A stretch of 64,000 nt of DNA, from assembly GCF_044324785.1 (NCBI RefSeq), contig NZ_CP172127.1, one strand, 5' to 3'. Source of the stretch: Escherichia coli. GTDB taxonomy: Bacteria; Pseudomonadota; Gammaproteobacteria; Enterobacterales; Enterobacteriaceae. Positions 48,130-48,558 of this stretch are shown one piece after another (position 1 is the stretch's first letter; each line of letters begins with the position of its first letter). Below the pieces are notes generated by a model that was not told the origin of the DNA, did not search any database, and saw only the letters and a list, made by a program, of their open reading frames with translations. The position numbers and the translations under genes were made by a program.

Positions 48130-48558
48130 TTACGCTTTGGTGGCAATCAGGATGGCTGATGCTTTGATCAATGCAATAACGCGTGAGCCAGTGGTGAGTT
48201 TCATTTCATCCTGACTTTCATTTGTTACCACTGCCACAATTTCAAAACCCGCATCCGTTTTGATATGGACAGTGGCGTTCACTGCGCCTTCGGTGATTGT
48301 CGACACGCTGCCAGCAAACTGGTTGCGAGCAGAGAATTTCAGTCCACAGTCTTCCGTTGCCAGCGTTACCCACGGGGCTTTAATCAGGGCAATCGCTTCT
48401 TTCCCTTTCGCCAGACCCAGCGCTTGCTGGCTGCTGTGAGTCACAATTGCCACCAGCTTTGCACCACCTGCCAGCGTCAGTTCTACTTCATCATTCACAG
48501 CGCCCATTGCTACTGCGCTAACTGTTCCGGTTAATTGATTTCTTGCTGAAACTGCCAT
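48130..48558 (-). CDS. Tandem Mop (molbindin/TOBE) domain protein
   Basis: 142 aa from MAVSARNQLTG (GGAGG SD 5 nt upstream); two about 70-aa repeats each beginning SARNQ(L/F)(T/A)G.V; track ORF extends to 48597. Confidence 0.7.
   Translation of the reverse strand: MAVSARNQLTGTVSAVAMGAVNDEVELTLAGGAKLVAIVTHSSQQALGLAKGKEAIALIKAPWVTLATEDCGLKFSARNQFAGSVSTITEGAVNATVHIKTDAGFEIVAVVTNESQDEMKLTTGSRVIALIKASAILIATKA

Follow-up and report, generated by a model that had tools for sequence, protein, structure and literature searches.

What does the small open reading frame between ygbA and fhlA in this Escherichia coli genome encode, and does its place beside the formate hydrogenlyase (FHL) genes bear on its function? 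An earlier note on this DNA, a stretch of 64,000 nucleotides that we refer to as the window, had described a stand-alone tandem Mop protein encoded between ygbA and fhlA, in the vicinity of hyp and hyc. The open reading frames and the annotation confirm this location: upstream of the di-Mop gene (hereafter mop) lie fhlA, on the same strand and 44 nt away, then hypEDCBA, and then the divergent hycA-I. The features of the locus are the following.

47747..48091, plus strand: ygbA, nitrous oxide-stimulated promoter family (PF11756, 4.8e-41; NF007713, 266 bits), convergent with the di-Mop gene and 38 nt from it; a neighbour with no part in the proposed system
48092..48122, minus strand: predicted intrinsic terminator hairpin, a 14-pair stem with 7 GC pairs, then TTATTTCTTT; G+C-rich, with a T run
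48130..48558, minus strand: di-Mop coding sequence, 142 aa by open reading frame and translation, predicted ModG-type molybdate/tungstate-binding protein
48559..48602, minus strand: fhlA-mop spacer, 44 nt, no terminator
48563..48567, minus strand: Shine-Dalgarno core GGAGG within AAAGGAGG, 4 nt before the di-Mop ATG, read from the sequence
48587..48592, minus strand: TATACT, a candidate -10 element inside GTGGTTATACT, some 30 nt before the mop ATG, found by eye
48603..50681, minus strand: fhlA, formate hydrogenlyase transcriptional activator, 99% identical to annotated FhlA, upstream neighbour of the di-Mop gene

The reading frame extends on the minus strand from the ATG at 48558-48556 to the TAA at 48132-48130 (142 codons plus stop), and the RefSeq annotation contains the identical 429-nt coding sequence (WP_000301062.1). 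A longer, 155-aa open reading frame starting from the GTG at 48597 was rejected because the starts of the orthologues and the Shine-Dalgarno sequence place the start at 48558. All orthologues have the N-terminus M-[A/S/T]-[V/I]-SARN, directly after a conserved Shine-Dalgarno sequence, and the corresponding region of the di-Mop gene, AAAGGAGGCAGTATG, is conserved in Escherichia and Citrobacter, with one or two changes in Pluralibacter. The protein matches, in two stretches each, the Pfam TOBE model PF03459 (119.2 bits against a cutoff of 22.3, 8.8e-35) and the NCBIfam model TIGR00638 'Mop' (142 bits against a cutoff of 55, 4e-42), far beyond chance. Domain 1 spans approximately residues 1-68 and domain 2 approximately residues 73-142; no further domain reached the cutoff among all Pfam and NCBIfam models. 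The fhlA-adjacent reading frame is a real, intact gene with a strong ribosome-binding site, and its product is a small protein that consists of two Mop domains.

Among proteins of known structure, the best relative is ModG of Azotobacter vinelandii (1H9J/1H9K/1H9M; 116.8 bits, E = 5e-33 for 1H9J over residues 1-140), followed by the di-Mop domain of ModE (60.7 bits, E = 1e-15); the sequence is 49% identical to full-length ModG, compared with 36% for the ModE domain. Each half also matches the single-domain molbindins Tub of E. limosum, MopII of C. pasteurianum and Mop of S. ovata, with about 40% identity between either half and Tub in the structural alignment. The AlphaFold2 model of the monomer, built on 28 aligned sequences, has a mean pLDDT of 96 and a pTM of 0.87, and the top PDB matches retrieved with it by Foldseek are the three ModG entries (TM 0.94-0.95, rmsd 1.3-1.4 Å, 48% identity), with molybdate- or tungstate-bound ModE entries next (TM 0.88-0.90). 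By every sequence and structure criterion of membership that was run, the fhlA-adjacent protein is a ModG-type di-Mop protein; the profile matches, the solved structures and the predicted fold all agree with the stand-alone tandem Mop protein of the earlier note.

The names given to this protein in databases include 'molybdate transport system regulatory protein' and 'transporter'. These are misnomers because the protein has neither a DNA-binding nor an ATPase domain. Its alignment to the ModE model NF007957 covers only positions 124-261 of 263 (88 bits versus a cutoff of 369); the protein begins right at the SARN motif, and the stop codon of fhlA is located 44 nt upstream. Models of ModC and WtpC match only over their last 60-75 positions (approximately 280-353), with 26-49 bits versus cutoffs of 285-440. 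Identification as the ModE transcriptional regulator was accordingly rejected, given that there is no helix-turn-helix or other DNA-binding domain, and so was identification as ModC or another ABC-transporter ATPase, given that there is no Walker A/B nucleotide-binding domain. The gene has been mentioned in passing as 'transcriptional regulator modE' in a paper on the evolution of SPI-1 (Lerminiaux et al. 2020, section 3.6, PMC7232297); in the absence of a DNA-binding domain, this label is an inherited mis-annotation.

The oxyanion-binding positions were derived from the 2025 structure of Tub, in which the contacts are made by Ser4, Arg6, Ala20-Val21-Asn22, Ser40, Lys60 and Ala61 (PMC11980592). 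The type-1 site of Tub is on the three-fold axis, is formed by the backbone of Ala20-Val21-Asn22 and resembles that of ModG, whereas the type-2 sites at the interfaces are formed by Ser4, Arg6, Lys60 and Ala61 of one domain together with Ser40 of its neighbour (PMC11980592). With the residue list taken from that paper, alignment of the di-Mop protein to Tub, MopII and ModG yields the following correspondence.

Tub Ser4: S4 in domain 1, S76 in domain 2
Tub Arg6: R6 in domain 1, R78 in domain 2
Tub Ala20-Val21-Asn22: A20-V21-N22 in domain 1, A92-V93-N94 in domain 2
Tub Ser40: T40 in domain 1, T112 in domain 2; ModG likewise has Thr
Tub Lys60: K60 in domain 1, K132 in domain 2
Tub Ala61: A61 in domain 1, A133 in domain 2

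The oxyanion-binding residues, the lack of which the earlier note had named as an argument against its own reading, are all present in both domains. In an alignment of 28 sequences (26 di-Mop orthologues, ModG and ModE), these positions are invariant or nearly so in the orthologues and ModG; the departures are in the ModE row and, at A20, N22 and A61 of domain 1, in one distant orthologue from Burkholderiaceae (L050). With both GAVN loops and both interface motifs kept, the protein appears compatible with a trimer.

The gene is present in 1892 of the 5426 complete RefSeq genomes of E. coli (35%), always in a single copy and always on the chromosome; 1889 copies are near full length and three are truncated. 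The mop gene analysed here is 100% identical to that of enteroaggregative E. coli (EAEC) strain 042, the same protein is encoded by the Nissle 1917 strain, and mop is also found in avian pathogenic E. coli (APEC) O18 and O2-211. K-12 MG1655 lacks mop: fhlA (b2731) is followed, after 36 bp, by ygbA (b2732). These findings justify the suspicion of the earlier note that the gene is strain-variable, and show that it is not a universally present locus, which that note had considered as a counterargument. A published comparison reports mop in IAI39, E. albertii and E. fergusonii, and describes K-12 and O157:H7 as identical at this locus, with ygbA as the sole gene between fhlA and mutS in K-12 (PMC7232297). 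O157:H7, like K-12, is placed among the strains that lack mop.

The mop-minus junction was compared in four genomes chosen across the identity range (a K-12-like isolate, CFSAN064035, H14 and the cattle strain 138). It is exactly identical in all four: two anchor sequences are 71 nt apart, compared with 537 nt in strains that have mop. One deletion of about 470 bp, taking out the reading frame, the Shine-Dalgarno sequence and the spacer and leaving a homologous terminator hairpin, would fit this pattern. In a scan of Enterobacterales with one genome per species, 46 loci with mop were detected; at 36 of these, from at least 10 genera, the order is hypE-fhlA-mop with mop immediately 3' of fhlA, and ygbA is often the next gene. 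This order is found in E. albertii, a cryptic Escherichia, Citrobacter, Klebsiella, Raoultella, Kluyvera, Enterobacter, Pluralibacter, Yokenella, Lelliottia and Kosakonia. Because E. albertii and many genera carry mop at the fhlA site, its presence there is ancestral and its absence derived, and given the outgroup presence together with the identical junction in the four mop-minus genomes, the variability of mop in E. coli is, on this comparison of loci, due to loss in K-12-type lineages and not to gain. Horizontal acquisition by some E. coli strains was rejected since the outgroups (E. albertii, Escherichia sp., Citrobacter and others) carry mop at the same site. Judged from pairwise dN/dS values of 0.03-0.11 against orthologues ranging from E. 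albertii out to Edwardsiella, selection on mop is strongly purifying.

Two observations concern the rearranged loci. In mop-minus E. coli (L001, L055, L056 and L057), ygbA encodes 117 aa ending in ...KKP(H/R)E or ...KKTRE, versus 114 aa ending in ...KK (window 47980-48130), and the terminator hairpin departs from that of mop-plus strains in its loop and in a base pair at which a compensatory change has turned G·C into C·G; on account of these differences, the 3' end of ygbA and the terminator form a distinct haplotype linked to the deletion. In E. coli FDAARGOS_1285 (L003, NZ_CP070152.1, 2288-3126), an IS1A abuts a 46-codon 5' fragment of mop (window ~48433-48558); the gene order is nlpD-IS1-'mop-fhlA, and this place lacks rpoS, mutS and the variable segment between them, as well as ygbA and two thirds of mop at its 3' end. 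This suggests an IS1-mediated deletion, which would leave the strain deficient in rpoS and mutS unless these genes were relocated.

As for the expression of mop, the terminator scan detected no terminator-like site between fhlA and mop, and no stable RNA structure was predicted at 48545-48640, where the fold is no better than those of shuffled sequences (z = -0.03). Given that the spacer has no terminator, read-through from fhlA is plausible, and the simplest reading makes mop the final cistron of one or more fhlA transcripts, with fhlA probably its co-transcription partner. The hairpin at 48092-48122 may be the terminator of this fhlA-mop transcript and, if bidirectional, would be common to the convergent ygbA; in K-12, the homologous hairpin is kept directly 3' of fhlA. 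The hyp-fhlA unit is anaerobic and formate-responsive, with an FNR-dependent promoter inside hypA and an FhlA/sigma-54 promoter upstream of hypA, and the expression of mop would be expected to follow that of this unit.

Conceivably, mop also has a promoter of its own at TATACT. Escherichia, Citrobacter, Kluyvera and Pseudocitrobacter all share the sequence GTGG(C/T)TATACT, and -10-like counterparts are GGCTATAA in a Pluralibacter MAG (L020) and related genomes and TCTATAA in P. gergoviae. TATACT has no recognisable -35 element, and scanning 47600-49200 with the sigma-70 consensus gave no promoter. Two other candidates, both in the conserved GTGGCTATACT, were rejected by eye: a sigma-54 site, in which the -12 GC is missing, and an FNR site, in which the right half-site is missing. 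No ModE operator was found at 48301-49000 with four patterns on both strands, the best match to TAYAT-N7-TAYAT being 7/10; this range extends about 440 bp upstream and about 260 bp downstream of the mop ATG. In A. vinelandii, by contrast, modG is described as ModE-controlled in the literature cited with PMC11980592. An inverted repeat, TAAATC-AATGCC-GATTTA (48604-48621), overlaps the stop and last codons of fhlA; it is found in K-12 as well and is not a ModE box.

We propose that the protein functions as a cytoplasmic molbindin of the ModG type, consisting solely of two Mop domains (TOBE type 1) in tandem. If it assembles as ModG of A. vinelandii does, three chains would form a pseudo-hexamer with six Mop domains and with room for as many as eight oxyanions of molybdate (or tungstate). 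Two of these would be bound on the three-fold axis by main-chain atoms of the G-A-V-N loops (residues 19-22 and 91-94), and six at the domain interfaces by Ser4/Ser76, Arg6/Arg78, Thr40/Thr112 and Lys60-Ala61/Lys132-Ala133. Such a protein would serve as a buffer or store of molybdate inside the cell and pass it to molybdenum-cofactor synthesis. As the putative terminal gene of the hyp-fhlA transcription unit, perhaps with an additional weak promoter of its own, mop would be expressed anaerobically under formate induction, which is when the cell assembles FDH-H, a molybdo-selenoenzyme, along with its other anaerobic molybdoenzymes. The gene is dispensable, K-12-type lineages having apparently lost it by one clean deletion of about 470 bp. 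We assign a probability of roughly 0.8 to a trimeric, ModG-like cytoplasmic molybdate/tungstate buffer that feeds molybdenum-cofactor synthesis as far as the molecular function is concerned, and a lower one to the physiology. K-12 makes all its molybdoenzymes without mop, and any mop phenotype may therefore be subtle. We found no functional study of mop from E. coli or other enterobacteria in the literature and, contrary to another possibility raised in the earlier note, no paper that had already characterised the E. coli locus. The di-Mop protein belongs to a known family, of which the enterobacterial member is uncharacterised; it is not surprising in kind.

A buffer is not the only function that a protein of this architecture could have. 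It could act as a 'TudG'-like tungstate trap, sequestering tungstate, a poison of E. coli molybdoenzymes, rather than supplying molybdate: Mop domains bind both anions, structures with bound tungstate exist for the di-Mop domain of ModE, for MopII and for Tub, and the gut species with ModG/TudG-type architectures reportedly include more predicted users of W than of Mo, with TupA or a W-oxidoreductase as the criterion of W use (PMC11980592). However, nothing in the di-Mop sequence separates W from Mo, and ModG, the closest solved relative, is a molybdate protein. Enterobacteria, moreover, use ModABC and Mo enzymes, and we consider a tungstate trap quite improbable. Still harder to credit is the idea that mop is the decaying vestige, or a mis-called piece, of a gene for a ModE-like regulator and has no function today, even though some sources name the protein 'molybdate transport system regulatory protein' or 'modE' and 65% of E. 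coli genomes lack mop with no obvious harm. The protein has a constant length of 142 aa across genera and retains both binding motifs, the Shine-Dalgarno sequence of the gene is conserved, truncation affects only 3 of the 1892 E. coli copies, and the protein is far closer to ModG than to ModE; a dN/dS of 0.03-0.11 excludes decay.

The remaining alternatives involve the FHL system. Molybdate-loaded di-Mop protein might contact FhlA (or HycA, or the maturation factors of FDH-H), such that the hydrogenlyase genes are on only when there is molybdenum for FDH-H; the protein would then serve an enhancer-binding protein as its sensor domain in trans. This would accord with the position of mop 44 nt after fhlA on the same strand, shared by 36 of the 46 Enterobacterales loci in at least 10 genera, with the use of the same kind of di-Mop module by ModE to sense molybdate, and with the known contribution that molybdate and ModE, besides FhlA and formate, make to the expression of hyc and fdhF (PMC3149613). 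We nevertheless regard such a partnership as unlikely. In Phytobacter and Kosakonia sp. S29, mop is kept without fhlA, directly following hypE; in Raoultella sp. L015 and Enterobacter sp. L031, it is kept without the FHL region, following ascB; and in Serratia, Cedecea, Edwardsiella and Salmonella it occurs in unrelated contexts. Furthermore, FhlA is identical (WP_001301446.1) in the mop-plus strain 042 and the mop-minus strain 138, and hyc expression responds to molybdate in K-12, which has no mop (PMC3149613). Doubtful to much the same degree is an FHL accessory, retained 3' of fhlA throughout Enterobacteriaceae on that account, that either couples FhlA-driven transcription to molybdate availability or channels molybdate specifically to FDH-H maturation. 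If this were true, K-12-type strains would have lost a layer of control and would rely on ModE and MoeA instead, and the old puzzle of molybdenum sensing by the formate regulon would have a strain-dependent answer. The earlier note had taken the place beside the FHL regulon as a hint of function; the conserved position supports this, but the functional tie is weaker than that position suggests, with mop persisting without fhlA or FHL and FhlA identical in mop-plus and mop-minus strains. The link between mop and formate hydrogenlyase is positional rather than demonstrated, and the molybdate/tungstate buffer is the reading that we prefer.

Other associations and the wider surroundings of the gene can be briefly described. 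The mop gene of Salmonella enterica (L053 6001-6429; L054 4025-4453), 89% identical, is not beside fhlA and resides in a variable island. The same island encodes a YedY/MsrP-like molybdoenzyme (PF00174) together with its partner, a cytochrome b (PF01292), as well as a TetR regulator, DUF417 and a fimbrial usher, and it contains the remnant of an IS21; here mop is associated with a molybdoenzyme for a second time, independently. In the window, positions 1-45000 include ygcE, cysJI, a type I-E CRISPR-Cas system (cas3, casA and others), cysN and ftsB-ispDF-truD-surE-pcm-nlpD-rpoS; cysC is found in the corresponding segment of strain 042. Positions ~40000-44900, which match L058 8258-12665, are an rpoS-mutS segment with hydroxyarylic acid decarboxylase genes, by the names of the annotated features; in strain 042, the rpoS-mutS segment encodes a MarR-family regulator, decarboxylase subunits B, C and D, pphB and a TPR protein. 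This arrangement appears variable, and positions 25001-45000 are at least 80% covered in only 1650 of the 5426 E. coli genomes. The best match among complete genomes over positions 1-25000, strain N3, is only 98.1% identical, which places the source strain in a sparsely sequenced lineage.

Molybdenum homeostasis of E. coli has been worked out almost wholly in K-12, a strain without mop. About one third of the sequenced E. coli, including EAEC 042, the probiotic Nissle 1917, strains of APEC and IAI39, are predicted to have one more molybdate-binding TOBE protein, the third, in addition to ModE and ModC; other carriers among the sampled genomes are Citrobacter, Klebsiella, Kluyvera and several Enterobacter and Raoultella species. 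If the di-Mop protein buffers molybdate or tungstate, it could alter the level of free molybdate and hence ModE-dependent regulation, the activity of FDH-H/N/O and of nitrate, DMSO and TMAO reductases under molybdenum limitation (gut, urinary tract), and tungstate tolerance. The comparison with K-12 amounts to a natural mop knockout, and the ModG-type assignment corrects the annotations 'modE', 'regulatory protein' and 'transporter' that are already in the literature.

The protein can be compared with known systems that share the TOBE fold. The TOBE domains of ABC ATPases (ModC, M. acetivorans ModBC 3D31, MalK) show a distant likeness (TM 0.6-0.7), and ModC-type ATPases carry a nucleotide-binding domain that the di-Mop protein lacks. 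The C-terminal di-Mop domain of E. coli ModE (1B9M, 1O7L, 1H9R/S) has the same tandem Mop fold, with the molybdate ligands of the first domain common to both proteins, but ModE has an N-terminal winged-helix DNA-binding domain that is absent from the di-Mop protein, and in its second domain SARN is changed to NADN and Lys to N, whereas the di-Mop protein retains both ligand sets. The single-domain molbindins (MopII 1GUG, S. ovata Mop 1FR3, Tub 9BEB) have the same ligand positions as each di-Mop half and form hexamers; with two domains fused per chain, an equivalent trimer is expected, in which the poles are not equivalent. Closest is ModG of A. vinelandii (PDB 1H9J, 1H9K, 1H9M; Delarbre et al. 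2001), which likewise consists of two tandem Mop domains in about 140 aa and nothing else, and shares with the di-Mop protein both SARN motifs, both GAVN loops, both Thr and both Lys-Ala pairs. ModG is a trimer with eight oxyanion sites of two types, an arrangement that is expected for the di-Mop protein by analogy. The settings differ: modG is part of the mod locus, linked to modEABC, whereas mop is 3' of fhlA in the hyp-fhlA unit, between fhlA and ygbA and not beside modEABC, and the role of ModG has been defined for nitrogenase, which the E. coli host lacks. Linkage to the mod locus and control by ModE are traits of the Azotobacter system, not of the ModG protein family.
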